The notes: a model not told the origin generated them from the sequence alone. Positions 35,898 to 52,769 are shown, counted from the first letter of the stretch. The stretch is 64,000 nt of DNA from Clostridia bacterium (GCA_900755035.1 CAAEEZ010000016.1:172873-236872), one strand, 5' to 3'. Numbers and translations: made by a program.

Positions 35898-36060
35898 TTT
35901 ATAGCGTTTAAGGTTGCGTATATTGACAATATCGTTGCATGCCTACCTATAATATGATATAATTATGATCATCTAATATTCTATATAAAATCGGTGAGGT
36001 TGTAAAAGGCCTTAAATGTAGAAATTCTATTTGTACATTAAACTCAAAGGAGCACGAATT

Positions 36061-37977
36061 GTGGAAAGACTAAATGATATACTTGTAAATCTATTAAAAA
36101 CGGATAGCCGTTATTTTACGGACGAAGGCGAACTTCTTAAAAATGCCGTTTATGAAGACGCTATGAAAATGGAAACTTCGCTTATAAAATTATTGCTTTC
36201 AGATGATACCTGCAAAGCACGTTTCTTTACGGAAGTTGACGGCGTTTTAGTATTTGATAAAGTCGGCTTTGGCTGGGTAATCAATAATCGTCAGTTTTTA
36301 CCGGATTCATTCACACGCTATAAGAATAAAATTGGACTTGTCGATAATAACGGCGAGTTTCTTTCGTCATCGGATAATGTTGTTTTAGCATTTCCGTACA
36401 AAGATTGCGTTTTAGAGTTTGACAGTACGGATGAAAATGAGAAGCGTACTGAAATTTTTTATAACGAAACATTATGCCACGACGATATAGATCATTTATT
36501 CAATAGAAAAGTATTTTCCAACGCACAACGACACACGAAAACAGGTATAGAAAACATAACAACCTTTAATGATGAGAATCTTGTAATTAAGGGTAATAAT
36601 TTACTTTCTTTATATTCTTTGCTCGATAAATACGCTGGAAAAATAAAGTGTATGTATTGGGATATACTTTATAACACGGAAAACGACCAAGTTCCCTACA
36701 ATGATAGTTTTAAGCACTCATCTTGGCTGACTATGATGAAAAATCGTTTAGAAGTAGCTAAAAAACTATTGCGCACCGACGGTGTTATTTGTTTGCAATG
36801 CGATGATAACGAAATGGCTTATTTGAAAGTCTTATGTGATGAACTTTTCGGTAGGGAAGCATTTATCAATTGTATTTGTATTAAATCTTCCGAAGCGAGT
36901 GGCACAAAAATGGCACACGTTGAAAAAAAATTTCCTAAAATAAAAGATTATTTGCTTGTGTATAAGTCAAATCCTTCTGCTTTAATCCATATTAAACCTA
37001 TTAAAGTTGACAATACTGAAAATATATATGATTTTATTGAATATGCAAAATATTATACTAAAATTATTACAAATCCAAACGCTCCTGTAAATCAGTGGAA
37101 TATTGTTTCCATAAAAGATTATATAAAAAACGAGAAATTGAGCATAAATGTCAATAACGATATTGAATTAACAAAATTCAAATTGGATAATGCAGATAGA
37201 ATAGTGTATAGAACAAATAATAAGTCTTTTAGTAAATATCATTTTAATACAGCAACTGAAGAAATTATTTCGCCAAACGGTATTCGCTATATTTGGTGGG
37301 AAGGAAAGCAAATGCTGTTTTTGTCAGAATATACAAGTACATATCTGTGTGATATTTGGAGTGATATTAGTACAATAAATCTAAACAAAGAAGGAAATGT
37401 CCAACTTCCAAATGGTAAAAAACCCGAATCGTTATTAAGACGTATCATATATGCATTTACCAATGAAAATGATTACGTTTTAGATGCATACTTTGGTACA
37501 GGAACAACGGGTGCAGTTGCATTAAAAATGAATAGAAAGTTTATTGGTTTAGAGCAACTTAATTCTCATTACGAAAAATGCAAACACCGTTTAACAGAAG
37601 TCATAAACGGCGATACTTCGGGAATCTCAAGCGAAGTAAATTGGCAAGGTGGTGGCTCGTTTGTTTCGGTTGAATTAAAAACGCTTAATCAAGTTTTTGT
37701 GGAAGCAATACAATCGGCAGCAAACGATGAGCAACTTGCAAGCGTTTGGGCTAAAATGCGTGAAAGTGGTTTTATTAGCAGTTACGTAAATCCGAAAGAT
37801 ATAAATACCGAAGCTGAAGATTTTAACACCCTTTCTTTTGACGATAAAAAAAGACTGTTCCTTGCTATTTTGGATAAAAATATGCTTTACGTAAACTATT
37901 GTGATATCGACGACGAAACCTACGATATATCAGAAGCAGATAAGGCATTCACAAACAGTTTCTATAAGGAGTCGTAA
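36061..37977 (+). CDS. mod: Type III R-M methyltransferase (Mod), beta-class, atypical motif IV
   Basis: Motif I LDAYFGTGTTG near the C-terminus; the motif IV position reads WDILYNT instead of IDPPYNT; GTG start at 36061 lies 8 nt after aaggag. Confidence 0.75.
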   Translation: MERLNDILVNLLKTDSRYFTDEGELLKNAVYEDAMKMETSLIKLLLSDDTCKARFFTEVDGVLVFDKVGFGWVINNRQFLPDSFTRYKNKIGLVDNNGEFLSSSDNVVLAFPYKDCVLEFDSTDENEKRTEIFYNETLCHDDIDHLFNRKVFSNAQRHTKTGIENITTFNDENLVIKGNNLLSLYSLLDKYAGKIKCMYWDILYNTENDQVPYNDSFKHSSWLTMMKNRLEVAKKLLRTDGVICLQCDDNEMAYLKVLCDELFGREAFINCICIKSSEASGTKMAHVEKKFPKIKDYLLVYKSNPSALIHIKPIKVDNTENIYDFIEYAKYYTKIITNPNAPVNQWNIVSIKDYIKNEKLSINVNNDIELTKFKLDNADRIVYRTNNKSFSKYHFNTATEEIISPNGIRYIWWEGKQMLFLSEYTSTYLCDIWSDISTINLNKEGNVQLPNGKKPESLLRRIIYAFTNENDYVLDAYFGTGTTGAVALKMNRKFIGLEQLNSHYEKCKHRLTEVINGDTSGISSEVNWQGGGSFVSVELKTLNQVFVEAIQSAANDEQLASVWAKMRESGFISSYVNPKDINTEAEDFNTLSFDDKKRLFLAILDKNMLYVNYCDIDDETYDISEADKAFTNSFYKES

Positions 37978-37979
37978 TT

Positions 37980-40565
37980 ATGCCGTTCCTTTTTGAAAAA
38001 ATTGACACATTAAAGGAAGTTGGCATTTATAGCGAACTTCCAACGTATATAAAAGAAAATCTAAATCCTGCATTTGAGTTGCGCCCTTATCAAGAATCGG
38101 CGTTTTGTAATTATATTACATACTTTGAAAATCCGAAAATACGACAAAAACCAACGCAAACGTTATTTCATATGGCAACGGGTAGTGGTAAAACGCTTAT
38201 TATGGCAGGGCTTATGCTTTATCTTTACAAACAAGGCTATCGTAATTTCCTTTTCTTTGTAAATTTAAGTAATATTGTACGCAAAACGAAAGAAAATTTC
38301 CTTGTGCAAACGTCGTCTAAATATCTTTTTGCTGAAAATTTAATTATCGACGGCGAACGCATTAAGATTAAAGAAGTTAGCAATTTTCAAAATACCGATG
38401 AAAATGCTATAAATATTTGCTTTACTACCATTCAAGGTTTACACTCGGATATGTGGGCTGTTAAAGAAAATAGTATTTCCTTTGACGATTTTAAGGATAA
38501 AAAAGTCGTTCTTATATCTGATGAAGCCCACCATTTAAGCGCAAGTACGAAAAAGCAAGAAAAAGAAGAACAAGAAAATAATAAGCATTGGGAATATACT
38601 GTTGGTCGTATTTTTGGTGCTAACACTGACAACGTTCTTTTAGAGTTTACCGCTACTTGCGACGTTAAAAATGTTGATATTTTAGCAAAGTATAAAAATA
38701 AGATTATTTTTGATTATCCGTTAGCGAGGTTTAGAGAAGATTTATATTCCAAAGAAATTAAAACGTTGCGTACGGATAGCCCCGTTTTTGAGAGGTCTTT
38801 ACAAGCCGTTTTATTAAGTCAATATCGCTTGAAAGAATTTCAAGATAACCGCCTTAACATAAAGCCCATTATTCTTTTTAAGTCGCATTTAATTAAAGAA
38901 AATGCGGATAATATGGCAAATTTTATAAAGAATATTTCTACACTTACGGGCGCAAAAATACAAGAAGTTTTTGATATGATACGTGGACAAGCACCCGTTA
39001 TGCAAGAAGCCTACGAATATTTTATAAATAATGGTATTTCTTTTGAACAATTAGCGCAAGAGATTAAAGACGATTTTTCGGCTTCGCATTGTATTTCAGC
39101 TAATGACGATAAAGAAGTCGAAAAAAATCAATTGCTTTTGAACTCTCTTGAAGATAAAAACAATCCGTATCGTGCCGTATTTGCTGTTGATAAATTAAAT
39201 GAAGGTTGGGATGTTCTTAACCTTTTCGATATTGTTCGTCTATACGAAACCCGTGATGGTAAAAACGGCAAGCCGGGCGCAGGTACGATTTCAGAAGCAC
39301 AACTTATAGGGCGTGGTGCAAGATATTGTCCTTTTAAGATTGATGATGAGCAACCTAAATATCAACGCAAATATGATAACGACGTTGATAATCAACTTCG
39401 TATTTGTGAAACGCTTTATTATCATTGTTGGAATGAGCCGAGATATATAAGTGAATTACATACTGCTTTACGCGAAGTTGGACTTGATCTTGATGGTATC
39501 GTTACTAAAAGATATAAATTAAAGGACTCATTCAAAGCTGACGATTTATATCGTACAGGCTACGTATTTACGAATGAAAGAGTATTAAAAAGCCGTAACG
39601 ACGTACACGAACTTTTGCCGTCCGTAAGAGATAAAATATATGAAGTGGTGATAGCCGTTGGTAAAGGTGGCGAAGACATTGTTTTAGAAGAAGTTTCTAC
39701 CGATATAAGTGTAAAAACTTATCAATATCTTACAACGTTTAAGGAAATTGCTTCTATAAATTATTCTACCGTAAACCGAGCATTAAGACAGTTTGACGTG
39801 TTTAAATTTAACACCTTAAAATCATACTTCCCGAACGTAAAATCTACTTATGATTTTGTAACCGATAGCAATTATTTAGGCGACATTAAAATAAAAATTA
39901 CGTCGAAGCACCAAATACCACAGATGAGCATTATTTATAAGGCTTGCGTAAACGTTCTTTCTAAAATTGCTTCAAAGGTGTCTGCTATTGAAGAAGTTTG
40001 GGAAGGTACGACAGAATTTAAGGCGCACTATATAAGCGAATTTATTAAAGATAAGAGTGTAAACTATACGCCGATTGCAGGCGGTAAAGGAACGTCGCAA
40101 AACGATGCTTCCGTTGGTGCAAATCGTTTAGATTTGTCAGTTGAAGATTGGTTTGTATTTAACGATAACTACGGAACGTCCGAAGAAAAAGCCTTTGTGC
40201 GTTATTTCAAGGATTATGTTGATACCTTGCGAAGTAAGTACGATAAAATATATTTGCTTCGTAATGAACGTCAAATACACCTATATTCGTTTGAAGGTGG
40301 TGAACGCTTTGAGCCTGACTATATCTTATATTTATGCAAAAATCGCACCGATTCGGTTGAACAACTTATTGTTTTCGTTGAGCCGAAAGGTACACACTTA
40401 ATTGATTCGGATAAATGGAAAGAAGATTTCTTACTAGAACTTAAAGGCAAGTCAATTCCTACAATTACGTTTGCCGATGATAATAAATATAAAATATGGG
40501 GTTTTCACTTTTTTAATACAGAACGTAGAAGCATTGAATTTACTGCGGATATGGAAACATTATAA
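37980..40565 (+). CDS. res: Type III restriction enzyme Res subunit (SF2 helicase plus PD-(D/E)xK nuclease)
   Basis: Walker A MATGSGKT, DEAH box SDEAHH, C-terminal EPDY…VEPKG nuclease motif. Confidence 0.85.
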   Translation: MPFLFEKIDTLKEVGIYSELPTYIKENLNPAFELRPYQESAFCNYITYFENPKIRQKPTQTLFHMATGSGKTLIMAGLMLYLYKQGYRNFLFFVNLSNIVRKTKENFLVQTSSKYLFAENLIIDGERIKIKEVSNFQNTDENAINICFTTIQGLHSDMWAVKENSISFDDFKDKKVVLISDEAHHLSASTKKQEKEEQENNKHWEYTVGRIFGANTDNVLLEFTATCDVKNVDILAKYKNKIIFDYPLARFREDLYSKEIKTLRTDSPVFERSLQAVLLSQYRLKEFQDNRLNIKPIILFKSHLIKENADNMANFIKNISTLTGAKIQEVFDMIRGQAPVMQEAYEYFINNGISFEQLAQEIKDDFSASHCISANDDKEVEKNQLLLNSLEDKNNPYRAVFAVDKLNEGWDVLNLFDIVRLYETRDGKNGKPGAGTISEAQLIGRGARYCPFKIDDEQPKYQRKYDNDVDNQLRICETLYYHCWNEPRYISELHTALREVGLDLDGIVTKRYKLKDSFKADDLYRTGYVFTNERVLKSRNDVHELLPSVRDKIYEVVIAVGKGGEDIVLEEVSTDISVKTYQYLTTFKEIASINYSTVNRALRQFDVFKFNTLKSYFPNVKSTYDFVTDSNYLGDIKIKITSKHQIPQMSIIYKACVNVLSKIASKVSAIEEVWEGTTEFKAHYISEFIKDKSVNYTPIAGGKGTSQNDASVGANRLDLSVEDWFVFNDNYGTSEEKAFVRYFKDYVDTLRSKYDKIYLLRNERQIHLYSFEGGERFEPDYILYLCKNRTDSVEQLIVFVEPKGTHLIDSDKWKEDFLLELKGKSIPTITFADDNKYKIWGFHFFNTERRSIEFTADMETL

Positions 40566-40642: not shown

Positions 40643-42160
40643 CTATTGTAAAAAAACAAAACGCACTCCTAAATATTTGGAAGTGCGTTTTATCTTTGGT
40701 GCCCCAAGGCATTTCAAATCCGAACCAGACGGGGTGCAGTTGAGTTCCGAAAGGAATACTGTTTTTGTTCCGTCCTTGTAGTTGAAGGTAAAGGTTATCT
40801 TATCATCGTAAAGGTATATTGCATTGATAAATCCATCGATTAGCCTTTGTTTACCTTCTTTTGTTGAAATATTCAACTTTTTAAATTTCTCTATTCCAAA
40901 GCGTATTTGCTCTTTCGTAAGAAAGGGTTTTTTAATTTGTTCTTGAACGATAGTTAAATCAAGTTGGTTCTTTTCTTTTTCAAGTTCCGCAAGTCTATCT
41001 TTCGTTGAGTCGAAGATAATCCCTTGCTCAATCGCTGTAATTATGTTTTTAATACGATTTTCAACGTCTTCTAATTGTAAACGCAATCTCGGTAAGCGCG
41101 GATTTTCTTCGCCCTGTAAATCGAAAATCCTATCCACAAGATAATCAATCACGGCTTCGTCGTGAAGAAGCTCCATTGCCTTTTGAACGGCTAAATCTTC
41201 AATCCACAACTTACGTACCGTTTTCTTATCGCAAGTATGCTTTTTAGCGTTTACGCATTTGTAATAGCGGTGGACTTCCTTTTTTCTTCCCGTTCCTGCT
41301 TCACCAACCATAAGCGCGCCACATTTACCGCAGAACAATTTTGTAGTTAAAAGATAATCATCTTCCGCTTTATGACGGGCGGGTGCGTGTTTATTTTGCG
41401 CCATACGACGTTGAACACGCTCAAATAAGTCTTTGCTAACGATAGCAGGCACGGCATCGGGAATTACAATGTCATTATATCTAAATTCGCCTATATACTT
41501 GCGGTTGGTAAGCATATATTGAACGATATTATAAGACATTTTCTTGCCAAGTCTTGTCGTTATTCCTTTTGCATTGAAATGGTTTACAATATCTTTGATA
41601 AGGTAGCCGTCGGCATACATTGTAAAGGCTTCCACAACGATAGGAGCAAGTGTTTGGGCAATAGCGTGTTTTTGTTCTTCGTCTATGTAGTAACCAAAAG
41701 GAATTTGTCCGCCGTTTACTTTCGCTTTTAATGCATTTTCTTTGAGCCCACGCTTAACCTTAACGGAAAGTTCAGCCGAGTAGTATTCCGCCATACCTTC
41801 AAGCATTGATTCAAGAATAATTCCTTCAGGACCTTCGCTAATGTTTTCCTTTGCCGAAACTACTTTAACGCCGTTCTTTTTAAGGATATGTTTGTAATTG
41901 GCAGAATCGTATCTATCACGAGAAAAACGGTCTAATTTCCAAACGATAATCATATTAAAGCAGTGCTTATAACTATCTTTAATCATACGTTGAAAATCGG
42001 GACGATTATCCGAAGTAGCCGTCATCGCACGGTCTATATAGTTTGCAACGACGTCCACACCGATTTTATTCGCAAATTCCAAACACTCACGAAGTTGACC
42101 TTCAATAGATTCTTCACGTTGACTATCCGAAGAATATCGCGCATATATAACTGCTTTCAT
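40643..42160 (-). CDS. Large serine recombinase
   Basis: 505 aa; N-terminal resolvase domain AVIYARYSSDSQ (catalytic Ser), recombinase domain, Cys-rich zinc-ribbon (CGKCG…YYKC…C). The last codons run through a hairpin/T-run at 40650-40691. Confidence 0.9.
   Translation of the reverse strand: MKAVIYARYSSDSQREESIEGQLRECLEFANKIGVDVVANYIDRAMTATSDNRPDFQRMIKDSYKHCFNMIIVWKLDRFSRDRYDSANYKHILKKNGVKVVSAKENISEGPEGIILESMLEGMAEYYSAELSVKVKRGLKENALKAKVNGGQIPFGYYIDEEQKHAIAQTLAPIVVEAFTMYADGYLIKDIVNHFNAKGITTRLGKKMSYNIVQYMLTNRKYIGEFRYNDIVIPDAVPAIVSKDLFERVQRRMAQNKHAPARHKAEDDYLLTTKLFCGKCGALMVGEAGTGRKKEVHRYYKCVNAKKHTCDKKTVRKLWIEDLAVQKAMELLHDEAVIDYLVDRIFDLQGEENPRLPRLRLQLEDVENRIKNIITAIEQGIIFDSTKDRLAELEKEKNQLDLTIVQEQIKKPFLTKEQIRFGIEKFKKLNISTKEGKQRLIDGFINAIYLYDDKITFTFNYKDGTKTVFLSELNCTPSGSDLKCLGAPKIKRTSKYLGVRFVFLQ
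40716..40727. repeat. Direct repeat copy L (aaatccgaacca)
   Basis: Exact 12-mer also present at 55108-55119, where it is the left arm of the hairpin downstream of tRNA-Leu. Confidence 0.5.
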
Positions 42161-43254
42161 TCAGTTTTCTCCTTTATTTTATATTTTACACTTAAATAAT
42201 TAGTAAAATTTTTATGCTCATTTAAGTTGTATTCGGCTTGTAATCGTTCATATACATTTCCTTTCATTATGTCATCAAAGGATATGCCCGCCATAGTTGT
42301 TTTTCCTGTAATCTCTTTTACTTTTTTATCTTTTTTAAGCACTTGTTTCAAAGTTTCAGAACAATAAAAATCTTCTGAATACAAGAAAATCAAATAGTTG
42401 ATTACAGATAATTTATCTTCGCGAGATAAGGCTTTGAACCCTTTATAAAACTTTCTATACCTTTTCTCATTATTGTCAATAAAAAGCATTATCGCCGTTT
42501 TATTTTTCAATGGAAAAACACAAATATATAAGTCTTTCATATGATAATTAGGGTCTTTATTATAAATGTCATTTACGATATTTCCGTCAAAATCAACATA
42601 TAAAGCAATTTGCCCTTGAAAAGCAATTGGAACGGTATAATCAAGTAAATCATAGTAAATTAAATAATATCCGTCATTGTAATTGCTTTTGATTTGTTTT
42701 TTTGCTTTGTTAAAATCCATTAAAAAATCTTTCAAATCAAGCGAATTGACTTCATTCATTTGCGTAAAGCGCGGAGCATCTTTAATTGCTTGCATCAATT
42801 TATATTGTTCTATTTCTACCTTTCGTTTATATATATATTTCAAATTGGATTTTAATGCAATAGCCGCTAAAATACTATGTGAAGGTGTAGCATTGTACAC
42901 GTCAGGATTTTCATATTCTTGAAAGATAGTATTATCACAATCTTTACAAATAATATGAAACGTCCCTGCATTGCCAACACCGCTATCTTCTTTCAGATAA
43001 AACGGAAACTCTATAATGCTATTTACCGTTAAGACCATTCCATCGCTATCTATGTTATGTAAACAAAAAGCGGGGATATTATGAGAGTTGCAAAATGATG
43101 TTACGGATTTTCCACAATACAGACAAGTAGTTCCTTTTGCATTATCACGGGCTTGTTTTATAAGCCTTGACATCTGTTTGTTTACTTCAATAGCATTACC
43201 ATTAAAATTTTTTGATATCCATTCGCTTGTTTTAGCTAAATTGTGTAATTCCAT
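42157..43254 (-). CDS. DUF4238-like protein with N-terminal CxxC…CxxC element
   Basis: 365 aa; CLYCGK…SHNIPAFCLHNI resembles the DUF4238 HY(V/I)PxFYLxNF signature; second pair CKDC; 4-nt overlap (ATGA) with the recombinase gene. Confidence 0.45.
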   Translation of the reverse strand: MELHNLAKTSEWISKNFNGNAIEVNKQMSRLIKQARDNAKGTTCLYCGKSVTSFCNSHNIPAFCLHNIDSDGMVLTVNSIIEFPFYLKEDSGVGNAGTFHIICKDCDNTIFQEYENPDVYNATPSHSILAAIALKSNLKYIYKRKVEIEQYKLMQAIKDAPRFTQMNEVNSLDLKDFLMDFNKAKKQIKSNYNDGYYLIYYDLLDYTVPIAFQGQIALYVDFDGNIVNDIYNKDPNYHMKDLYICVFPLKNKTAIMLFIDNNEKRYRKFYKGFKALSREDKLSVINYLIFLYSEDFYCSETLKQVLKKDKKVKEITGKTTMAGISFDDIMKGNVYERLQAEYNLNEHKNFTNYLSVKYKIKEKTE

Positions 43255-43270
43255 ATTATTTATCTCAAAT

Positions 43271-44020
43271 CTATATTGTTAAACTATACTTGTTGTATAA
43301 TTCGATGAATTGGTCTAAAAATTTACATACCAAATCTCTATCTAAAGCAGTTGATAAAGTTTCCTCGTTTCCTTCAGCATTTTTACTCCAATTATATGAG
43401 CCGTGCATTACATAATCAAAATCTATAATACAAAATTTGTTATGCATCCTATTTTTTCCCCACATTGGAACAGTGATAGTGTCAAATTTCTCTTCTAATT
43501 CAGGCAATCTCCATTTGTTAGATTCTTCGTCTGATGTTATAATTCGCACATTAACACCTGCATCTTTTTTTAATTCAAGTTCACGGATAATATCTTTATC
43601 AGTTATCCACGCAACTGCCGCCCAAATTATATATTTAGCACCTCTTATACCTTGAATAATTGTGTCTTTAATTTCATTAAAATCTACATCATATTCTTTA
43701 TAATCCCAATTTTCGGTTTCTATTGGCTTAGGCTTAATTTGTAATTCGCCAAAGGCATATTGCTCGCTTTCAATATATATGTCTTCAGCTAATCCGTTTA
43801 ATTGATTTTTATATTCTTTTGCATTCTTCAACATAGGGATGGGTACGCGCAAAGCAATATTTTCCCAAAATTGATAACTTTTTTTCGTGAAGTATGATGT
43901 TTTTTCAAAAGTGATAATAGAATTACGAAGGATAGTTAAAATTTCATCTTTATTAGGAAAATCCTCATATTTTACATACTCAATCATAGTTTTCAAGAAT
44001 TGCTTTTCATTGACTATCAT
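43271..44020 (-). CDS. PLD-superfamily (single HKD, Nuc-like) putative nuclease
   Basis: 249 aa; HNKFCIIDFDYVMHGSYNWSKNA matches H-x-K-x4-D-x6-GS-x-N; unassigned N-terminal domain of about 110 aa. Confidence 0.75.
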   Translation of the reverse strand: MIVNEKQFLKTMIEYVKYEDFPNKDEILTILRNSIITFEKTSYFTKKSYQFWENIALRVPIPMLKNAKEYKNQLNGLAEDIYIESEQYAFGELQIKPKPIETENWDYKEYDVDFNEIKDTIIQGIRGAKYIIWAAVAWITDKDIIRELELKKDAGVNVRIITSDEESNKWRLPELEEKFDTITVPMWGKNRMHNKFCIIDFDYVMHGSYNWSKNAEGNEETLSTALDRDLVCKFLDQFIELYNKYSLTI

Positions 44021-44376
44021 TACTTTTGTTCCTCCAACATTTTCTTTAAGGTTTCTTTGAGTTTTGCGTGTGCGTTAGTGCTTGGGTCAAAACACATCTC
44101 GATAAAGTCTTGCATACGGTCAGAATTTTCTAATTTAGGTTGTCCGTAAAGTTTACCTTCGGGGTTGTCCGTTCTACCGAGAAGATAATCCGCCGATACG
44201 TCAAAGTAATCGGCAATCTTAACAAGTACGGGGTAGGACGGCATAATAGAGCCAAGCTCGTAACGAGCGAGAACGGGTTGTTTTACGTCGCCAAGTGCCG
44301 TAGCAAGTTTTGCTTGTGATAACTTTGCTTTTTCTCTTAATGACTTTATTCTATATCCAATAATGTTTTCTTGCAT
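44020..44376 (-). CDS. XRE-family HTH transcriptional regulator
   Basis: 118 aa; …IKSLREKAKLSQAKLATALG…YELG… HTH_3 pattern; its stop codon overlaps the PLD gene start by 1 nt. Confidence 0.8.
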   Translation of the reverse strand: MQENIIGYRIKSLREKAKLSQAKLATALGDVKQPVLARYELGSIMPSYPVLVKIADYFDVSADYLLGRTDNPEGKLYGQPKLENSDRMQDFIEMCFDPSTNAHAKLKETLKKMLEEQK

Positions 44377-44403
44377 ATATACCTCTTGTTATTTTGTTCT
44401 TTA

Positions 44404-45414
44404 CTAACAGTATTTTCGTAAATCTTCTTCTTTTGCACCATAAACTTGTTTTGTTGACGCATTAAATAGTTTTTCATTGTAAGCATCAATAATAGCCGCA
44501 TCTCTAATTATAGTGGTCGTGTTTTCTTTTATGGAATTCTTACAGATAATTGAAAGTTGGGGGGTTATCGGATAAAATAATTCAAAATTATTTATAGTTT
44601 CTCCAATATTATTATAATCAGCGTAAAGATTAATTAATGGAAAATCGCTCGTTATGAAATTTTGCGTTGTTTCATTTTTTATTAAATCTATATAAAAATT
44701 ATTTTTACAAAAGGCAGAAGCTAATATTTGAGTATTAACAACCATCATTAAAGGAAACATTGCTAAAGTGGTATTTTTTAAGCACGAATCTTCAAATTTT
44801 TCAACAGTTTGCTTTATCGAATTCAAAATATTATCCTTACTTCTCCATGTTCTAAGCATTTGAGCTGCAATAAACTCAAAAAAATCATATCTTAAATCTT
44901 CGCCATTATATGTAGAAAGTGTTAAGTTATATAACGCTTTAATTTCCATATCAGAAAAAAGGCATTCATTTGAAAATAGATTATTAAGCATATTAAATTT
45001 TAAAAAATCTGAAAATTGTTCCAATACTGTTGGTCCTTCAAATGGAAATTCTCCTTTATATAATTTATTTAAAAATTTAATGCCATTATTTTCTATAGGA
45101 CATACAAAATTATTTTCGATAAAATCTTTTTGAAATATATCTGAAGCATCTGTTATTTTACTTTTGACTCCAATCAGTTTTTGATTATTCAGCCACTTAT
45201 CAAAATATTGAGTTACTGCCTTTTTATCGCTCTCGTTTATCATGCTAATATCATAACTATATTTTTGGACACCAACATTTTCAAGTGATACATTTTTTAT
45301 AATTTTATTTTCAGCTTTGTAATAACAAACAATATTTCCATTGCTAGAATCTAAATTATCTGTCCAAGGCGATAAATACTTTCTCCAAACTAAGTGTTGT
45401 CGTATTGTTGACAT
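44404..45414 (-). CDS. DUF4238-family protein
   Basis: 336 aa; N-terminal QHLVWRKYLSPW and later FITSDFPL resemble the DUF4238 signature blocks. Confidence 0.5.
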   Translation of the reverse strand: MSTIRQHLVWRKYLSPWTDNLDSSNGNIVCYYKAENKIIKNVSLENVGVQKYSYDISMINESDKKAVTQYFDKWLNNQKLIGVKSKITDASDIFQKDFIENNFVCPIENNGIKFLNKLYKGEFPFEGPTVLEQFSDFLKFNMLNNLFSNECLFSDMEIKALYNLTLSTYNGEDLRYDFFEFIAAQMLRTWRSKDNILNSIKQTVEKFEDSCLKNTTLAMFPLMMVVNTQILASAFCKNNFYIDLIKNETTQNFITSDFPLINLYADYNNIGETINNFELFYPITPQLSIICKNSIKENTTTIIRDAAIIDAYNEKLFNASTKQVYGAKEEDLRKYC

Positions 45415-45458
45415 TTCGCACCTCCATATTTTTTAGATGTTAATTACCATCTTACATT

Positions 45459-45487
45459 ATTATAACCGAAAAGTTTTTAAATGTCAA
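45459..45487 (-). promoter_or_regulatory. Consensus sigma-A promoter for the DUF4238-XRE-PLD operon
   Basis: Minus strand reads TTGACA, 17-nt spacer, TATAAT, about 40 nt upstream of the ATG at 45414. Confidence 0.7.
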
Positions 45488-45519
45488 TACGATATAGGTA
45501 TATTTATAAAAAATAGATA

Positions 45520-45551
45520 TTAAAAACGGCAGATACTTTAATCTACCGTTT
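45520..45551 (-). terminator. Rho-independent terminator ending the Hsp70-like operon
   Basis: Minus strand aacggtaga/tctgccgtt stem (one G-U) followed by TTTTT, 10 nt after the stop. Confidence 0.65.
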
Positions 45552-45560
45552 CAATAAGAT

Positions 45561-47390
45561 TTATTTCCAATTTTTATCTTTGTAAGGAGTATCTTCTACA
45601 CCTTTATCATTGAGTTTTTTAACCATACGGTCTAATGTACCTTTCCACATTTTCTTAAACCATTTTGTTTTACCAAACCATTTTACAAGTGTAGGACTAA
45701 TCGCGTAATATAATTTGATAAAGGCACGACCATACCAAGTAGAGCCAAGAGTGTCATCACGGAAGCGACGTAACGTCCATACTTGCGGGCAATCATATGA
45801 GCCATAAACGCAAGTAGCAACATAACATCCACCACAACAATCGGAAGAACTAGAAGAATAACTTCTTGGATAAGAGTAGGAAGAACGTGATGCTGCTTTA
45901 TTTTTTGCATCTTCGAGTGTATCAGGATACGTTCTATGTGAACCACGTACAGCATCGCATTTTTCCATATAGGTTTTTGCGGTGTAAGAGTTAGCAGTCA
46001 ATAATTTATAAACTTCATCGAAGGTCTTAATGATTTCGCTTTGTAAAATCGTAAGTGCATAATATTTTAGAATATAATTTTTTAGCTCGTCTTGTCTTTT
46101 TTCTATAACGTATATTCCAAGTGCACCCATATTTGAAATGCTTGCGAGTTCTCGATTAAGATTTTCAAATAAGTTTTCAGTTACATTATCAAAACGGGTT
46201 AATGCGATAAGCAAATTAGTAAATAACGTGCGGTAATTTTTTAAACGTTCGGATTTGTAGAGTAAGCGCGTTAAATCATATAAATTTTGAGATACAGACG
46301 TTCCTTTTTTTATCGCAAGAATGCGTTCTCGGTAATAATTGTACCATTCTTCGCCGTTTTTTATTAAGGCGGAAAGTATTTCAAGTATTTCAATGTGTTC
46401 GCATTCGATATCGTTATCTTTAATATAGTCAATAACGCTCGAAACTGAACTCATTTTACTTAGCTCGTAATAAGTGTTTTTTTCAATGTTATCAAATAAT
46501 ATATAAGTAAAACACAGATTTATAAATACGGTACATAAGTGTTCAGCATCTTCGGGATGAAGTTTTTCTAAAAGTTTTGAAAAATTTGCAAAGAATAATG
46601 TGCCGTTTTCATCCACATTATTGGCTAATTGATTACAAAAAGCCTTATATGAATAATAGAACTCTTTATTTTTGAACAAAGAATTGTTTAATCCACAAAC
46701 AAACTCAATACTTGAAGTAAATAAACTTTCATCTTCCAATCTTGATGAAATCGAATCAAGAGAAGTAGCAATAGCATCGGCAAAAGCAGTAACAAATCTT
46801 TTTTTGAGAGAAGTATCCGTTGTCGCACTCAAAACCCTATAAGTCGCATTAACAGTTTTACTATTTAAGCCGTTTACAGACGAATTGATTTCATTTTCTA
46901 TCTCTAACCACAAAGATTCACAGAACGCAGAAAAGATTTCGCCGTTGGCATCCACTTTTGCATAGGTTAAATCTTTTTTCAGTAGCGCAGGAGTCACTAT
47001 CACACTTACAAGTTCATCAAAAACTTTACCGCTTATCTTCAATTTAGATATAGCATAATCAAAATTACGCACCAAATTAATTAATGCAGCTAGTTTCTTT
47101 CGGGAAGAAACTGATGAAGTTATTTCAGTATCAAATACGCTTTCTAATTGTTCAACAGATTTTCTATCTTGAACGTATTTTTCTACTGTATAGAAATCGA
47201 TATCTATGTAAGTCGAAAAAAGTTCTTCAACAAATAATTTTGCATCGCTATTTATTGTTTGAATATGAACCGGCAACTCTTTTCTCAATTCAGGACGAGT
47301 TTGAAATAACTTCATTAACTCGCCTTTTGATAACGATGATGATAACTTAAACTTCTCGAAAAGAGTTTCTCTTTTGAATTGTACTTCCAT
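45561..47390 (-). CDS. 609-aa helical protein with Ser-rich linker and Cys-rich C-terminal module (operon gene 3)
   Basis: No catalytic motif seen; the C-terminal 93 aa read DCCGGCYVATCVYGSYDCPQVWTLRRFRD…GRAFIKLYYAISPTLV… followed by a basic amphipathic tail. Confidence 0.6.
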   Translation of the reverse strand: MEVQFKRETLFEKFKLSSSLSKGELMKLFQTRPELRKELPVHIQTINSDAKLFVEELFSTYIDIDFYTVEKYVQDRKSVEQLESVFDTEITSSVSSRKKLAALINLVRNFDYAISKLKISGKVFDELVSVIVTPALLKKDLTYAKVDANGEIFSAFCESLWLEIENEINSSVNGLNSKTVNATYRVLSATTDTSLKKRFVTAFADAIATSLDSISSRLEDESLFTSSIEFVCGLNNSLFKNKEFYYSYKAFCNQLANNVDENGTLFFANFSKLLEKLHPEDAEHLCTVFINLCFTYILFDNIEKNTYYELSKMSSVSSVIDYIKDNDIECEHIEILEILSALIKNGEEWYNYYRERILAIKKGTSVSQNLYDLTRLLYKSERLKNYRTLFTNLLIALTRFDNVTENLFENLNRELASISNMGALGIYVIEKRQDELKNYILKYYALTILQSEIIKTFDEVYKLLTANSYTAKTYMEKCDAVRGSHRTYPDTLEDAKNKAASRSSYSYPRSYSSSSSDCCGGCYVATCVYGSYDCPQVWTLRRFRDDTLGSTWYGRAFIKLYYAISPTLVKWFGKTKWFKKMWKGTLDRMVKKLNDKGVEDTPYKDKNWK

Positions 47391-48247
47391 TATTTCTCTT
47401 TAACTTCCTTTTTATTGGGGTGTACGTTTATAGTAATTTTTGCTCTTTGGATAATAAGGCTATGATAACGTATTTCCGGTTGAAAAACTTTTACAACTTG
47501 ACCATTGGGTTTCTTTTTATCCTCGATTGTATCCACGGCACCAAAAACTTTCTTTTCTTCATCTGTTAAATCATTATAATTTAACCCTAAATAGTTAGGG
47601 ATATTCATTTCGTTTCTTAATAAAAACTCAATAAATATCTTCTCGTAGAAAAATTTTATTTGTTCAAATATCGGACTTTTATTCTTTTGCTGTTGCACTT
47701 TACAATAAATGTCATATATTTGGTTCGCAAAATCTTTTAATTGTGCGGTTATTTTAATTCTTTCTTCTTGTTTTGCATTTGCTAATTTTTCAACAGAAGG
47801 AAGAAAAGTATTCCCCTCAAATACTATTTTTCTAGAAAAATCTTTTAACGAAATACTTTCAGGCGAATCAATTAATTTTACTGTCCATCTATCACTATTT
47901 TCTTGAAGATAATTTTCTGCTTTAACATTAAAATCTTCGTCTTTTAAAAGAAATAAAATATATAAACGCAAATGTTGAGCATCTACGTCTTTAGGATAAT
48001 ATTCCAAAAACGATATTATTTTTTCATAAGCAGTTACAACTTTGTTTTCCTCTAATAATGTAATGGCCTCATTGTAATTGTTAAAGCGTGAAAAATAAAC
48101 GCTTTCAAATTCCTTTAATGAATAACGGCAATATTTACATTCCGTAGAATTTATGTTGTTATCCGTCCCACATAATGGACATTTATATAGCGTATAGTCG
48201 TTTTTTCGACTAATTGCTTGCGCAGAAAAATATTCAAACTGTCCCAT
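47390..48247 (-). CDS. Zinc-ribbon / helical-repeat protein with GrpE-like C-terminal domain (operon gene 2)
   Basis: 285 aa; CPLCG…CKYC ribbon; C-terminus …PNGQVVKVFQPEIRYHSLIIQRAKITI parallels the GrpE beta-domain (…V-x-QKGY-x-L-x-x-R-x-I-R-x-A-x-V-x-V); its stop overlaps the start of gene 3 (45561-47390) by 1 nt and the gene 1 stop overlaps its own start by 1 nt. Confidence 0.55.
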   Translation of the reverse strand: MGQFEYFSAQAISRKNDYTLYKCPLCGTDNNINSTECKYCRYSLKEFESVYFSRFNNYNEAITLLEENKVVTAYEKIISFLEYYPKDVDAQHLRLYILFLLKDEDFNVKAENYLQENSDRWTVKLIDSPESISLKDFSRKIVFEGNTFLPSVEKLANAKQEERIKITAQLKDFANQIYDIYCKVQQQKNKSPIFEQIKFFYEKIFIEFLLRNEMNIPNYLGLNYNDLTDEEKKVFGAVDTIEDKKKPNGQVVKVFQPEIRYHSLIIQRAKITINVHPNKKEVKEK

Positions 48248-51201
48248 TAGTCTTTGCTCACTCTTCCTTGGAATTTCTTAACTTTATCGCTAATTTCTTT
48301 AATGCCCGTTTGTTCAAGCAACATCATAAGACGTCTTGATTTTTGGATTGCGCGTTCAGCGATATCGTTATATTCGTCGTCCGTTTTTTCTTCAATATTC
48401 TTTATATCTAACGAGTTAAGGAATATAGTTACGTTTTCTATTTCTTGAGAAATAGAATTACGCAAAGAGTAATCGCTTAAAGTAGGAAGAATGCCTTGTG
48501 CATCAGTTATCAAATCGTAAATATGTTTCAAGCATATTGCCATCCAAGTTTTAGGATTTGATTTTATGTTCAAGATAGCTTTCATTCCTAACATATCTTG
48601 ATATCTTTCTTCAGCTTGTTTATAATCTTTTCTACTTAAAGCTCTTTTACCAAAGAACGCGTCGTCTTCAATTTTTGATATGTTAATATCGTCTTGTTGC
48701 GAAGCTAAATCTTTTAATTCTCGTTCTAACTCATCAAAATCTTCTTCAGTTAAGTCGCTAATACTGCTTGGAAGTTCACGAACAAGTGTCTCATACTTAT
48801 TAAGCGCATCCGTATAGTGGTTTTTATCGGAGTTAGCAACGGCTTCATTGAGCTCACGAGTGATATTTTCTTGCCTTGCAACAAATTCGGCTTTTGCTTC
48901 ACCGCGAACGTTTTCAATTTTATCGTAGAATTTTTCTTCAATATCCATAAGGGTGGAGTCATCTATATCTTTTGTTTCTGCATAAACGACTTTACCCTTA
49001 ATTTCTTTATTATTAAGCAATACTTTTAAGGTAACTTTTCCTAATACGTCAATTTCGGTGTTTACAGTTACTCGACTACCGAGTGGAGTATTTTCAGGCA
49101 CGTCTATAATAAGACTATAAATTTCACGATAACCTTCTTTAACGGGGAGAATAATTTGTTCTCGGCTATATTCGTTAATTTTAAAGTTGTGGCTTGCCGA
49201 ACAAGGGAGCGCCTCACCTTTATTTACTAACGGATAATCTTCCGTTTCTTGTCTTTCCAAGTCAACAATTTCTATACGGATGGTTTCGTTTTGGACAGGA
49301 GTAGGCGCAATTAAATTATTTTTTTCTACCGACTCCGTTAAGTTTGCTACCGTATTATTTCCAAAATAGAATTTATATTCTAATTTTTCATACACACCAT
49401 CAATGTCGGCAGAGAAGGTTCCGTCGCCTTGAACCGTTGCTTTAACTTCTTTTTCGTTAGAAATTAATCCAACTGTGTCAACTTGTCCTTTAATAAGTTT
49501 GCCCGATATGTTCATTGTTCCGTCAAACATATAAGGAGCATTGATTTCAACCACAATACCATTTTCCGTATCTTCAAATTTCATAGATTGAGTAGCGGCA
49601 ACGATACCTGCACCGTATCCAACTGCCAAGTCGGGGTCTGCTATAATCAACTCTTTAATCATTCCGCTATCAACAAATTTTTCTTTAACAGCGTTGCGAA
49701 CGTAAGGGATATGGCTTGAGCCACCAACCATTAAAACTCCCGTAATTTCAGAAAGTTGTCTGCCGCTTGCAACAAAAGCATCCAATGCTTTTTGGCATTC
49801 GTTAAAACTGTCAATTACGATTTTATCACGGATAAGTTCTTCAAATTTTGCTCTTGAAAAGTCTTCAATAATAAGGTCAACACCCGAATTGTCTTTGAAC
49901 ACATCGTAATAACTAATAGTATAGGTATCGTTTTGCGAAAGATTTTTCTTAACATTTTCAGCGGCAAGGAGAAGTGCATTATATTTATGTAAATCTTCTT
50001 TTTTAGTTAAATCTAAATCAATATCATATCCCAAATCGTTATTAAGAACATCAATAAAGTAGCGAGCGAGAAGATTATCGAAGTTATCTCCTCCCAAAAA
50101 GTTGTTGCCGGCAGTAGCCAAAACAACGGGTATGTTTTCTATTTTTTCGATAATAGAAACGTCAAACGTGCCACCGCCTAAATCGTAAACCATAAATACA
50201 CCGCTATTCACGTTGTTTTTAACGGTGTAATTTATAGCCGCTGCAGTCGGTTCTTCCAAAAGCATTAAAACTTCTAAACCTGCAAGTTCGCCCGCTTTGC
50301 GTGTAGCATCTTTTTGAGCGATAGAGAAGTAAGCGGGCACGGTAATAACGATTCTATCATACACAACATTTTCAGCTTTTTCCACTTGCTTGTTAAGTAT
50401 TTCCGCACAATATCTTACGATTTCGGCAGAGATTTCTTCAGGAGAATAGTTTTGACCATTCAAAACGGCGGGTTCTTCTTTACCCATCATTCTTTTGATT
50501 GAACGAATTTTTTCAATATGCGGATTGTTTTTAGGCGCAACACCCACTATAAATTTATCGCCTTTCTTAGCGACTAACGACGGAATCGTTTTAAGTTTTC
50601 CGTCTTCGGGACAAAAACTTGCACCGTTAATAAAAACTGAAGGTGTACTGTTTGTTGTTCCTAAATCAAGACCGAACGTTTTGTGAATAATCATTTTATT
50701 TATCTCCTTGTTTTGTTCTTCTAATGGTTTGTTTACTGCGGTATTTATTGCGACGGCTTTACTTTCACAACTTTCACCGATAATTTCTTCAATTTTAGTT
50801 ATAATTAGTTCATCATCATTATTTGGATAACTGCCGTAATTATAATGGGCTTTGTCATCCCAGCTACATAAAGCAATTTGATTTTGTCCTATTGTATATT
50901 CTGCGGTGAAATAATAATTTTGTTCTTTTACTAAAATTATTATATAGGCGCAGTCTGTAATAGAGATAGGCATAGTGGACGTCGTAAATCTATATTTTAG
51001 GGCGTTTAGATTTCCTACCTTAATAAATTCAATTTTATATGAAACAAAATCTGATAGATGCGCTTTTTCAATGGCGGTATCAATAATTTGCGTTGCACCA
51101 AAATTGTTTTTACCTTCGATAATACGGCTTAATAAATCTGAATCATAATTCAACACCATATTTCTTAATAATATGTGTTGAAAATTGTAATAGGCTCTCA
51201 T
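48247..51201 (-). CDS. Hsp70/DnaK-superfamily ATPase with unassigned 169-aa N-terminal domain (operon gene 1)
   Basis: 984 aa; GLDLGTTNS, VITVPAYFS, VYDLGGGTFDVS, MVGGSSHIPY motifs, then a beta-rich SBD-like region and a long helical C-terminus. Confidence 0.85.
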   Translation of the reverse strand: MRAYYNFQHILLRNMVLNYDSDLLSRIIEGKNNFGATQIIDTAIEKAHLSDFVSYKIEFIKVGNLNALKYRFTTSTMPISITDCAYIIILVKEQNYYFTAEYTIGQNQIALCSWDDKAHYNYGSYPNNDDELIITKIEEIIGESCESKAVAINTAVNKPLEEQNKEINKMIIHKTFGLDLGTTNSTPSVFINGASFCPEDGKLKTIPSLVAKKGDKFIVGVAPKNNPHIEKIRSIKRMMGKEEPAVLNGQNYSPEEISAEIVRYCAEILNKQVEKAENVVYDRIVITVPAYFSIAQKDATRKAGELAGLEVLMLLEEPTAAAINYTVKNNVNSGVFMVYDLGGGTFDVSIIEKIENIPVVLATAGNNFLGGDNFDNLLARYFIDVLNNDLGYDIDLDLTKKEDLHKYNALLLAAENVKKNLSQNDTYTISYYDVFKDNSGVDLIIEDFSRAKFEELIRDKIVIDSFNECQKALDAFVASGRQLSEITGVLMVGGSSHIPYVRNAVKEKFVDSGMIKELIIADPDLAVGYGAGIVAATQSMKFEDTENGIVVEINAPYMFDGTMNISGKLIKGQVDTVGLISNEKEVKATVQGDGTFSADIDGVYEKLEYKFYFGNNTVANLTESVEKNNLIAPTPVQNETIRIEIVDLERQETEDYPLVNKGEALPCSASHNFKINEYSREQIILPVKEGYREIYSLIIDVPENTPLGSRVTVNTEIDVLGKVTLKVLLNNKEIKGKVVYAETKDIDDSTLMDIEEKFYDKIENVRGEAKAEFVARQENITRELNEAVANSDKNHYTDALNKYETLVRELPSSISDLTEEDFDELERELKDLASQQDDINISKIEDDAFFGKRALSRKDYKQAEERYQDMLGMKAILNIKSNPKTWMAICLKHIYDLITDAQGILPTLSDYSLRNSISQEIENVTIFLNSLDIKNIEEKTDDEYNDIAERAIQKSRRLMMLLEQTGIKEISDKVKKFQGRVSKD

Positions 51202-51242
51202 TTGTTGTAATCTCCTGAAATTTTTCCTTTTGTTTTTACATT

Positions 51243-51254
51243 GAATTATCTAAT
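51243..51254. repeat. Inverted repeat, left arm (gaattatctaat)
   Basis: Perfect reverse complement of 51422-51433. Confidence 0.6.
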
Positions 51255-51267
51255 ACGTGTACTATAG

Positions 51268-51293
51268 AAAGATCTTTTACATCTATAGATGTA
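51268..51293. promoter_or_regulatory. Adjacent perfect palindromes (operator-like)
   Basis: AAAGATCTTT (51268-51277) is immediately followed by TACATCTATAGATGTA (51278-51293). Confidence 0.4.
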
Positions 51294-51319
51294 TCTAATG
51301 TACGCCTATATGTTTTCGA

Positions 51320-51348
51320 TTGACTAAATCGTAAAAAAGATGTATAAT
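51320..51348 (+). promoter_or_regulatory. Near-consensus sigma-A promoter inside the IR-flanked segment, facing away from the Hsp70-like operon
   Basis: TTGACT (51320-51325), 17-nt spacer, TATAAT (51343-51348) on the plus strand. Confidence 0.55.
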
Positions 51349-51421
51349 ATTATCAGTATTTTTCAAGAAAAAAAGGATTTTGACAATTTTTATCGTATAT
51401 TAAATATAGAGAAGTTCATAG

Positions 51422-51433
51422 ATTAGATAATTC
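51422..51433. repeat. Inverted repeat, right arm (attagataattc)
   Basis: Reverse complement of 51243-51254. Confidence 0.6.
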
Positions 51434-51439
51434 TATGTA

Positions 51440-51470
51440 GAAAAAGTGGCGAGCACGAAACTCGCCACTT
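51440..51470. terminator. Terminator hairpin after the tyrosine recombinase gene (potentially bidirectional)
   Basis: agtggcgag/ctcgccact stem flanked by A5 on one side and T4 on the other. Confidence 0.65.
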
Positions 51471-51479
51471 TTACCATTT

Positions 51480-52391
51480 TTAGAACAAAAACTTACCAAC
51501 GCGGTTCATCATTTCCGTCTTGTGTTCAAGCATAGAGTGAGCGTAGCGTTTTAAGGTTATCGTAGGGTTTTTGTGCCCTAAAATTTCCGATAGCGTTTTA
51601 ATATCCATTCCGCACTCTAAAGCGCGCGTTGCAAACGTATGACGAAGAGAGTGAAAGCCTTTATGCGGTAATTTCAAACGTTTTAATAATAGTTCGAAAC
51701 TCTTTTGATAAGAGCGAACCTGCGCACCATGTACGCGTTCACTACAAACAACGTAGTTTCCGCTTGACGATTTCTTATACTCTCTTAATCGTGAAAGCAG
51801 TTGCTTGGGTAAAGGAATAACACGTTCTGAAAAGTCCGTTTTTGGCGTGTCTATAACCTTAACGTATTTACCGTTTTCCCAACTATCGTGGCAAGATTTA
51901 GAAACAGTTATAATACCTTTTTGTAAATCTACGTCATCCCACGTAAGAGATAGAAGTTCGCCAATACGTAAGCCCGTGTAAAGACAAAGTACCACGCCGA
52001 ACAATTTATTTTTCTTCTTTTCAAAGATATATTGCTCGATTTTTCGTTGCTCTTCTTTAGAAAAACAATCAACTTGCTTTTCACGCTGTTTAGGACGCAC
52101 AATAGCCATTGTAAACTCTTTGTCCGTTACGCCAAGTAATACTGCTCGGCGCAAAGAAGATTTAAGCACGGATATAATGCCGTTTACGGTGTTTGCAGAT
52201 AGACCTTTTTCAGATAAATCCACAGTAAAACGTTGCAAAACGGTTGCCGTTAAATCGTTAAGTTCAAACTCTCCAAGCGCGGGGAGTATATGTAGTTCTA
52301 TTTGCCTTTTATATTTCTTGTACGTTCTAATTTTCGTAGTGGGCTTGACGTACAAAGCAAGCCACTCGTTTAACCAATTTTTATATTTCAA
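51480..52391 (-). CDS. Tyrosine site-specific recombinase (phage-integrase family)
   Basis: 303 aa; core-binding SAM-like N-domain, catalytic Arg (TGLRIGEL), HSLRHTF, LGH, RYAH(S) Tyr; TTG start after ggagg. Confidence 0.9.
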   Translation of the reverse strand: MKYKNWLNEWLALYVKPTTKIRTYKKYKRQIELHILPALGEFELNDLTATVLQRFTVDLSEKGLSANTVNGIISVLKSSLRRAVLLGVTDKEFTMAIVRPKQREKQVDCFSKEEQRKIEQYIFEKKKNKLFGVVLCLYTGLRIGELLSLTWDDVDLQKGIITVSKSCHDSWENGKYVKVIDTPKTDFSERVIPLPKQLLSRLREYKKSSSGNYVVCSERVHGAQVRSYQKSFELLLKRLKLPHKGFHSLRHTFATRALECGMDIKTLSEILGHKNPTITLKRYAHSMLEHKTEMMNRVGKFLF

Positions 52392-52556
52392 TAGTTTACC
52401 TCCGTTTGTGTTTTGCCGTCCCCGTTATAGGGGAACGGCTTAATTATTTTTAACCGTTTTTTTATTTCGGGATACGAAAACGGTCAAAACCCGTCCGCCG
52501 TTCCTTTTTACATTTTACTATTTTCTTTACCTTAATCGGCGGTTATCTCTATGTAA

Positions 52557-52742: not shown

Positions 52743-52769
52743 CCTCTATAGCGTTTTCCTCCTTCTCGT

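Follow-up and report, generated by a model that had tools for sequence, protein, structure and literature searches.

A five-gene operon on the minus strand of a 64,000-nucleotide stretch of DNA from a Clostridia bacterium (GCA_900755035.1 CAAEEZ010000016.1:172873-236872; the whole stretch is hereafter called the window) was analyzed here. The genes, numbered g1 to g5 in the direction of transcription, encode a DUF4238 protein, a helix-turn-helix (HTH) regulator of the XRE family, a phospholipase D (PLD) family protein with a single HKD motif, a protein with a cysteine cluster, and a large serine recombinase. The XRE–recombinase operon of a Tn4451-like mobilizable element probably serves here as a cargo hotspot, with g1, g3 and g4 as three independent stand-alone genes. 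These modules occurred independently elsewhere, were swapped between near-identical elements, and shared one promoter without an internal terminator.

Structure of the operon and its promoter

The components of the operon and the flanking signals are as follows.

45524-45551, minus strand: terminator hairpin of the upstream Hsp70-like/CFI-box operon, the inverted repeat AAACGGCAGAT/ATCTACCGTTT followed by a T-run
45459-45487, minus strand: P_xre, consensus sigma-70 promoter assigned to the XRE–recombinase operon (direct reading)
~44394-45439, minus strand: DUF4238 cassette occupying the leader, 3' of P_xre and 5' of the XRE ribosome-binding site; homology with the sibling element L103 is broken exactly here
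45414-44404, minus strand: g1, DUF4238 coding sequence, 336 aa
44376-44020, minus strand: g2, XRE HTH coding sequence, 118 aa
44020-43271, minus strand: g3, single-HKD PLD coding sequence, 249 aa
43254-42157, minus strand: g4, coding sequence of the Cys-cluster protein, 365 aa
42160-40643, minus strand: g5, coding sequence of the large serine recombinase, 505 aa
40594-40570, minus strand: terminator-like hairpin 3' of the recombinase gene, with a nine-pair stem and a T-run

Open reading frames (ORFs) read on the minus strand over 45414-40643 were separated by gaps of 27, -1, 16 and -4 nt, exactly as stated in an initial annotation made from the sequence, and all the peptide motifs quoted there were present. 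The junctions were read directly. The XRE stop codon overlapped the PLD start codon (TAATG) with GGAGG upstream, a 16-nt spacer preceded the g4 start, and the g4 stop codon overlapped the recombinase start codon (ATGA) with AAGGAG upstream.

The promoter P_xre consisted of TTGACA at 45487-45482 as the -35 element, a 17-nt spacer, and TATAAT at 45464-45459 as the -10 element, with a GGAGG ribosome-binding site downstream. This TTGACA-17-TATAAT sequence, already noted in the initial annotation, was the sole 12/12 consensus match within 40.4-45.7 kb. It was kept nearly base for base in five sibling elements (L001, L097, L102, L103 and L104), and this near-exact conservation indicated that P_xre was not a chance match. 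The hairpin at 45524-45551 was also kept in L103, L102 and L097. As the sole convincing terminator downstream of g1-g5 was located at 40594-40570 and no internal terminator was found, a single transcript of approximately 4.9 kb is plausible. The proposed co-transcription of the genes with a large serine recombinase is consistent with the one promoter, the lack of an internal terminator, and the three recombinase domains of g5 described below.

The position of P_xre in the siblings pointed to the origin of the present arrangement. The terminator and promoter block lying 5' of g1 corresponded to the sequence immediately 5' of XRE in L103, L102 and L001. The same promoter 29-mer was located 29-30 nt upstream of the XRE ATG in L001, L102, L103 and L104, and 44 nt upstream of the DUF4238 ATG in the window and L097. 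Since P_xre adjoins XRE in these four siblings, the leader of the operon has been interrupted here by insertion of the DUF4238 cassette. What had been regarded as the promoter of a five-gene operon is thus the XRE–recombinase operon's own promoter.

Exchange of cargo among sibling elements

A total of 197 loci, fetched via each gene in turn with flanks of 5-10 kb, were used for a survey of gene neighborhoods. Outside the window, g1 was found with g3 or g4 in none of the 197 loci, and g3 and g4 occurred together in L001 alone. These results went against the initial proposal of one novel system made up of a PLD gene and two DUF4238 paralogues controlled by an XRE regulator. Failure of the DUF4238 assignment along with absence of co-occurrence elsewhere had been named there as the outcome that would speak against this proposal; the genes indeed did not co-occur, while the assignment held for g1 and failed for g4, as described below.

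The sibling L103 showed 91% nucleotide identity to the window over 45440-53415, with 99% and 96% amino acid identity for XRE and recombinase, respectively, and lacked g1, g3 and g4. In L097, g1 (91% aa) and XRE (97% aa) were shared with the window and the inner cargo was different. The siblings sharing XRE (97-99% aa) and recombinase (95-96% aa) held other genes at the same positions, in agreement with an alternative also raised at the outset, that the genes are cargo of the element. The contents of the slot between the XRE and recombinase genes were as follows.

L001: PLD and g4
L003: g4 only
L089: PLD only
L097: Thg1-like protein and two unknowns
L102/L104: Thg1-like protein, membrane protein and canonical DUF4238 (PF14022, 3e-36)
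L103: Thg1-like protein and SIR2_2 (ThsA/LmuA-like)
L108: Thg1-like protein alone
L116/L120/L175: KilA-N, the PADLOC candidate PDC-S22 (6e-131)
L126: PDC-S31/DUF2971-like protein
L144: AAA_13, PDC-S06 (1e-114)
L163: small membrane protein

Many of these occupants are known or candidate defense genes (canonical DUF4238, SIR2, PDC-S06, PDC-S22, PDC-S31 and Thg1-like). The cargo was tightly fitted, beginning at or a few bases from the XRE stop codon and ending at the recombinase start codon. No shared linker or repeat, looked for as an integron-like sign, was detected at the cargo junctions. The exchange would be explained most simply by homologous recombination within the core genes on either side. 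Natural swap controls are available, as the cargo differs between near-identical elements.

The Thg1-like protein (tRNA-His guanylyltransferase fold; 215-240 aa; Pfam Thg1, E 3e-14) was encoded by the first gene after XRE in five siblings (L097:5363-6079, L102:8370-9092, L103:8371-9087, L104:1860-2582 and L108:8515-9162) with varying partners, and did not match PADLOC. Further defense-like genes were seen upstream of the operon promoter in two siblings: a dCTP-deaminase-like/TIR-like fusion in L001 (2663-3592), and a 1,246-aa NACHT-like NTPase with a 425-aa protein resembling domains associated with prokaryotic Argonaute in L002 (4698-9994).

The conserved XRE–recombinase pair

The assignment of g2 as an XRE HTH protein was supported by a match to Pfam HTH_3 (E 4.5e-15). 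Matches to RstR-like and CapH-like proteins (the latter 3e-10) were below the family cut-offs, and defense of the CapH/CapP type was not matched, with no CapP metallopeptidase gene in the operon. The C-terminal tail of g2 was conserved (..F.E.CFDPS..A.AKLK..L). The g5 product contained the Pfam domains Resolvase (E 7.9e-30), Recombinase (4.3e-19) and Zn_ribbon_recom (5.3e-11), identifying it as a large serine recombinase. It also matched the integrase family phrog_95 (E 2e-117), was distantly CcrB-like (NCBIfam, 8.5e-40, far under the cut-off), and was 95-96% identical to the recombinases of L103 and L104.

A metagenome scan with the alignment of XRE proteins gave 80 loci, in 68 of which a recombinase start lay downstream of XRE on the same strand. 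The two genes abutted with a gap of -4 to +25 nt in 55 of the 68, and the other 13 contained an insert of 81-2995 nt, mostly of unrelated genes. The conserved unit is thus XRE plus recombinase, with the XRE protein as the conserved partner of the recombinase rather than of PLD, and presumably as the regulator of the operon. The previous view of XRE as the regulator of a PLD module was not sustained. One locus (L139:8001-11648) contained two convergently oriented XRE–serine-recombinase pairs placed back to back, which suggests that elements lie there in tandem or are nested.

DUF4238 protein g1

The DUF4238 assignment of g1 was confirmed by the profile search (PF14022, E 1.4e-18, 67.7 bits against a gathering cut-off of 27), and all of the 26 clusters of its homologues carried PF14022. 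The invariant residues of DUF4238 were derived from an alignment that combined relatives of g1 with six distant ones encoded on viral contigs (18-24% identity) and the canonical member in a sibling element; they corresponded to H7, Q185, R188, D257, P259, N262, P282 and N313 of g1. The protein belongs to a small divergent branch having the motif QHLVWRKYL in place of HYVPxFYL. A local jackhmmer search from canonical DUF4238 over all the fetched loci did not reach g1, and no match was obtained in a scan of viral contigs with canonical DUF4238. An AlphaFold model of g1 (pLDDT 88.2) matched no structure in the PDB, nor did the sequence-profile search of the PDB with the DUF4238 alignment give anything meaningful. 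The relatives of g1 were stand-alone island genes located beside DUF2971 and methylase genes, beside an AAA_21 ATPase gene, or near a recombinase gene. In E. coli, strong resistance to T7 is conferred by one DUF4238 protein encoded at a P2 hotspot (PMC9122126). The present locus adds a DUF4238 gene from a Firmicute element, where its promoter is defined.

PLD nuclease-like protein g3

The identification of g3 as a Nuc-like PLD protein was borne out by a Pfam PLDc_2 match over residues 121-240 (E 5.6e-18), and the nearest solved structures by sequence were NucT (6ehi, E 4.6e-6), Zucchini/MitoPLD and Nuc (1byr). The protein had a single copy of the motif HxK(x)4D(x)6GSxN. Among 35 homologues of 58-76% identity, the residues H193, K195, D200, G207, N210 and S212 were invariant, and S208 was kept in at least 90%. 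The N-terminal domain (approximately residues 1-115) was strongly conserved in the same homologues with many invariant residues and matched no assigned domain. No signal peptide was found, as the N-terminus was formed by this conserved non-hydrophobic domain of approximately 115 residues. Similarity to the defense PLDs DrmC, DpdK and MkoC was at the domain level only (E 1e-8 to 1e-6).

Homologues of g3 formed 429 clusters, and their surroundings varied. The order XRE–PLD–recombinase without g1 or g4 was seen in L089. In integrative and conjugative elements (ICEs), g3-family PLD genes were found between the Rep_trans relaxase gene and ardA in three independent Tn916-like backgrounds. The PLD gene was next to ardA in L081-L084, L092-L096 and L190-L191 (Clostridium and gut metagenomes), and the ICE homologues (61-67% identity) were placed just upstream of ardA without XRE, g1 or g4. 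The PLD gene of the L081 ICE was flanked by a SieB-like exclusion gene. A homologue of Bacillus thuringiensis shared an island with HNH and OLD-like genes, and that of L192 lay between small ORFs and a gene for a 1,178-aa protein, with a recombinase gene nearby. Overall, g3 is best regarded as a cargo gene for a putative nuclease, placed in the XRE–recombinase slot. Because of the fixed place beside ardA in ICEs, its role in conflict may be either host defense or service to the element.

Cys-cluster protein g4

The g4 product matched no family in Pfam, NCBIfam, PADLOC or PHROGs. Its homologues nevertheless formed a large family: 265 clusters were obtained at 90% identity, all lacking Pfam domains, and 1,173 or more at 50% identity (E<=1e-3). 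When 1.84 billion representatives were searched with the g4 profile, the top 150 matches inspected were clear family members alone, with no bridge to another family. The cysteine residues C44, C47, C55, C103 and C106 were invariant, and H58, N67 and D107 were near-invariant. An AlphaFold model of high confidence (pLDDT 94.6) showed no fold match in the PDB or BFVD, and the sequence-profile search of the PDB with the g4 alignment gave nothing meaningful. The g4 protein is thus best placed in a large family that lacks annotation and has a putative Zn-ribbon.

The gene g4 had been regarded as a second, divergent DUF4238 paralogue. This idea found no support in the profile, BLASTP or hhalign tests. 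None of 21 members of the g4 family matched PF14022 even at E<=1, BLASTP of g1 against g4 gave an E value of 0.11, and hhalign of the g4 family gave probabilities of 0.1% with the g1 subfamily and 2.6% with a broader DUF4238 alignment. The sole stretch aligned with DUF4238 by hhalign was the N-terminal motif, SHNIPAFCLHNI against QHLVWRKYLSPW, in register. The DUF4238 invariants Q..R and D.P..N (D-x-P..N) were absent from g4, and the AlphaFold models of g1 and g4 were similar in the order of elements. What speaks for a paralogue is the short N-terminal motif alone, and a distant link may still exist. An identity as an HNH/His-Me protein was also considered and rejected, as no HNH model matched any of the 21 members. 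One UniRef entry in the family was named 'HNH endonuclease', and the pattern of Cys, His, Asn and Asp residues is suggestive, which we take as a lead only.

Eighty genome loci of g4 relatives were sampled from Clostridia, Bacilli and a few Proteobacteria, and g4 was a lone gene with large intergenic gaps in 73 of its loci. A PLD gene was nearby in L001 only, a Christensenellaceae metagenome-assembled genome 94% identical to the window, and a recombinase gene was directly beside g4 in L001-L003 only. The commonest genes among the 150 nearest neighbors were Phage_integrase (10), Resolvase (5), TnpV (4), plasmid Rep (3) and Gabija GajA (3). No match was obtained by tblastn of g4 against a phage collection. 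Relatives with 33-42% identity were encoded on plasmids, such as p14B4 of Lactococcus lactis (L196) and a plasmid of Paraclostridium bifermentans (L197). The plasmid matches included several dairy Lactococcus plasmids, and all were annotated as 'hypothetical protein'.

Proposed mechanism and alternative explanations

These observations can be combined into a model of the locus as the regulator–recombinase operon of an integrative mobilizable element residing in a gut Clostridia (Christensenellaceae-like) genome. The ancestral unit would be P_xre followed by XRE and recombinase, the two genes being translationally coupled. Cargo would enter at two insertion points, the leader between P_xre and XRE, which holds the DUF4238 gene here, and the gap between XRE and recombinase, which holds two unrelated genes, PLD and then g4. 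The XRE protein may repress P_xre and thereby set the joint level of cargo and recombinase. By analogy with the E. coli P2-hotspot protein acting against T7, DUF4238 would act alone. The PLD protein could form a homodimer with the usual two-HKD active site and cut foreign DNA, with the N-terminal domain giving specificity for a target or signal, or control. The g4 protein may be a further single-gene effector having a structural or catalytic zinc site. Each cargo gene would by itself protect the host and, in this way, the element.

Four other explanations were weighed against cargo loading. The genes for DUF4238, XRE, PLD and g4 might constitute one multi-gene defense or addiction system with interdependent parts. 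The single promoter, the lack of an internal terminator, and the overlapping or close genes agree with this, as does the order XRE-PLD-g4-recombinase kept together in L001. However, outside the window the only co-occurrence among g1, g3 and g4 in the 197 loci was that of g3 and g4 in L001. The same DUF4238 and XRE were coupled with other cargo in L097, the same core had neither PLD nor g4 in L102, L103 and L104, PLD was present without g1 or g4 in L089 and g4 without PLD in L003, and each family was mostly solitary elsewhere, making such a system extremely unlikely. A smaller unit would be a toxin–antitoxin-like addiction pair that stabilizes the element, with XRE as antitoxin or repressor and PLD as nuclease toxin. 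The overlap of the XRE stop with the PLD start, the recurrence of XRE-PLD adjacency in L001 and L089-L091, and the weak similarity of XRE to the HTH antitoxins MqsA, PezA and HipB, all far under the cut-offs, are in line with this pair. The same XRE family, however, abutted recombinase without PLD in the 55 metagenome loci, and PLD homologues of 58-68% identity were without an XRE neighbor in ICEs and other islands. A conserved co-occurrence of the two genes was thus not seen, and we consider the pair very unlikely.

A link to recombination itself, in which g4 and/or PLD would assist the serine recombinase as accessory factors in directionality or target choice, would explain why the g4 stop overlaps the recombinase start, the adjacency of g4 and recombinase in L001-L003, the presence of a serine recombinase gene no more than five genes away in 14 of the 80 g4 loci, and integrases as the commonest neighbors. 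On the other hand, most XRE–recombinase pairs had nothing between them, approximately 66 of the 80 g4 loci had no serine recombinase nearby, and SIR2, DUF4238, AAA_13 or KilA-N proteins filled the same position in siblings; accessory factors are highly unlikely on this evidence. The remaining alternative, to which we give a low but not negligible probability, is that PLD, and possibly g4, serves the element against the host in anti-defense, entry or establishment, as in conjugative leading regions. The PLD gene fixed between Rep_trans and ardA in three independent ICE backgrounds fits such a role, the archetypal Nuc is plasmid-borne, and the element of the window is mobilizable (Mob_Pre). Against it, the replacements in the XRE–recombinase slot were mostly defense-type genes, and a SieB-like exclusion gene flanked PLD in the ICE of L081.

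Some points weigh against independent defense cargo in the operon, although we regard it as the probable explanation. The defense roles presumed for PLD and g4 follow from association with other cargo and from the nuclease-type HKD motif, and the position of PLD beside ardA in ICEs fits anti-defense or establishment as well as defense. Autoregulation by XRE is assumed. The tight TAATG and ATGA coupling would also fit genes working together. Recombinases outnumbered defense genes near g4 (10 Phage_integrase and 5 Resolvase against 3 GajA, n=150). In addition, the survey reached the loci by way of the individual anchor genes, with 5-10 kb of sequence on each side, and many of the contigs were short.

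A more ambitious version of the cargo hotspot, which we put forward only tentatively, is that the operon is a dedicated and precisely loaded cargo site with defense genes co-transcribed with the recombinase, and that the families of g4 and of the PLD with its N-terminal domain are new stand-alone immune or anti-element effectors. If true, the same signal would switch on immunity and excision of the element. Already under the main model, the widespread regulator–recombinase pair of gut Clostridia acts as a site at which accessory modules of one gene each can land. Hotspots of this type are an established route to the discovery of immune genes, and the candidates without an assigned function at this hotspot are g4, the PLD nuclease with its N-terminal domain, the recurrent Thg1-like protein, and the partners of unknown family.

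The mobile element and its surroundings

The other features of the element and its flanks are listed below.

36031-40565, plus strand: complete type III restriction–modification pair (Mod 648 aa, Res 861 aa), adjoining the element right end
40690-40700, ~40697: element right end, inside the 3' end of the recombinase ORF, located by sibling divergence
45561-51201, minus strand: three-gene operon with an Hsp70 nucleotide-binding domain and a CFI-box, with its own terminator (Pfam and NCBIfam matches)
51480-52391, minus strand: tyrosine integrase (Pfam/NCBIfam)
52770-54077, minus strand: Mob_Pre relaxase (E 2e-45)
54399-55004, minus strand: sigma-70 region-4 protein, near tRNA-Leu
55159-55244: tRNA-Leu(CAG)
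55386-55889, plus strand: NERD-domain gene beside tRNA-Leu(CAG)

The window, L103, L104 and L002 were identical up to ...GGGGCACCA (~40697) and then wholly divergent, and blastn homology stopped at 40690-40697. Since the recombinase ORF crosses the element end, its last approximately 17 codons (40643-40700) are supplied by flanking DNA, and they differed among the window, L103, L104 and L002. The type III restriction–modification genes were ruled out as a part of the element and lie outside it because of the sibling divergence at ~40697. At the other side, the remainder of the element includes the genes at 45561-54077, and homology with L103 continued to the end of the L103 contig.

The upstream operon at 45561-51201 encoded three proteins, one of 984 aa with the Hsp70 nucleotide-binding domain, one of 285 aa with a Zn-ribbon, and one of 609 aa with a terminal CFI-box-CTERM, and was conserved in L103 at 85-99% aa. 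No meaningful PADLOC match was obtained for these genes (one Cas2, E 0.015). The operon may be another cargo system of the element. A stretch of approximately 225 nt at 52540-52764, between the Mob_Pre and tyrosine-integrase genes, was 72-75% identical to a stretch in L003, L108, L109, L113, L115 and L123, where it was located 2-3 kb upstream of XRE; it had no Rfam match and is possibly the origin of transfer (oriT) of the relaxase. The Rfam scan of 36-58 kb detected tRNA-Leu alone.

Comparison with known systems

The archetype of the clade of Nuc, NucT and Zucchini, Nuc, is carried on the plasmid pKM101, and the carriage of g3 on a mobile element matches this. Like the members of this clade, to which its closest solved structures belong, g3 has one HKD motif. 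Unlike Nuc and NucT, it has no signal peptide and has the conserved N-terminal domain of approximately 115 residues.

As to the DUF4238 single-gene system (Rousset et al. 2022), g1 likewise shows PF14022, the invariant residues, and stand-alone relatives in islands. It differs from canonical DUF4238 in belonging to the divergent branch of 26 clusters.

The element itself resembles Tn4451/Tn4453, integrative mobilizable elements with the large resolvase TnpX and the Mob/Pre relaxase TnpZ (PMC5704250). As judged by domain content alone, the two have in common a Clostridia host, a Mob_Pre relaxase, and a large serine recombinase encoded at the end of the element, and the latter two features place the present element among Tn4451-like elements; TnpV genes were also frequent near g4 relatives. 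Unlike in Tn4451/Tn4453, no TnpV, TnpY or TnpW was identified in the window, XRE precedes the recombinase, a tyrosine integrase is present, and the cargo is not an antibiotic-resistance gene.

Exchange of defense genes is known from the P2/P4 hotspots, where the DUF4238 single-gene system was first validated (PMC9122126), and from the defense cassettes of the staphylococcal cassette chromosome (SCC/SCCmec), which are mobilized by Ccr large serine recombinases in staphylococci (PMC11470126). As in these systems, core genes here flank a site that swaps unrelated, mostly small defense systems, and a large serine recombinase, here distantly CcrB-like, is shared with SCC/SCCmec. In contrast to both, the cargo lies inside the recombinase operon, in the leader and in the gap between regulator and recombinase, with translational coupling kept, and the element belongs to a different family, with an XRE–recombinase pair and a Mob_Pre relaxase in gut Clostridia. 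The locus is a new instance of the known defense-hotspot phenomenon in a different element family, and not a new kind of system.

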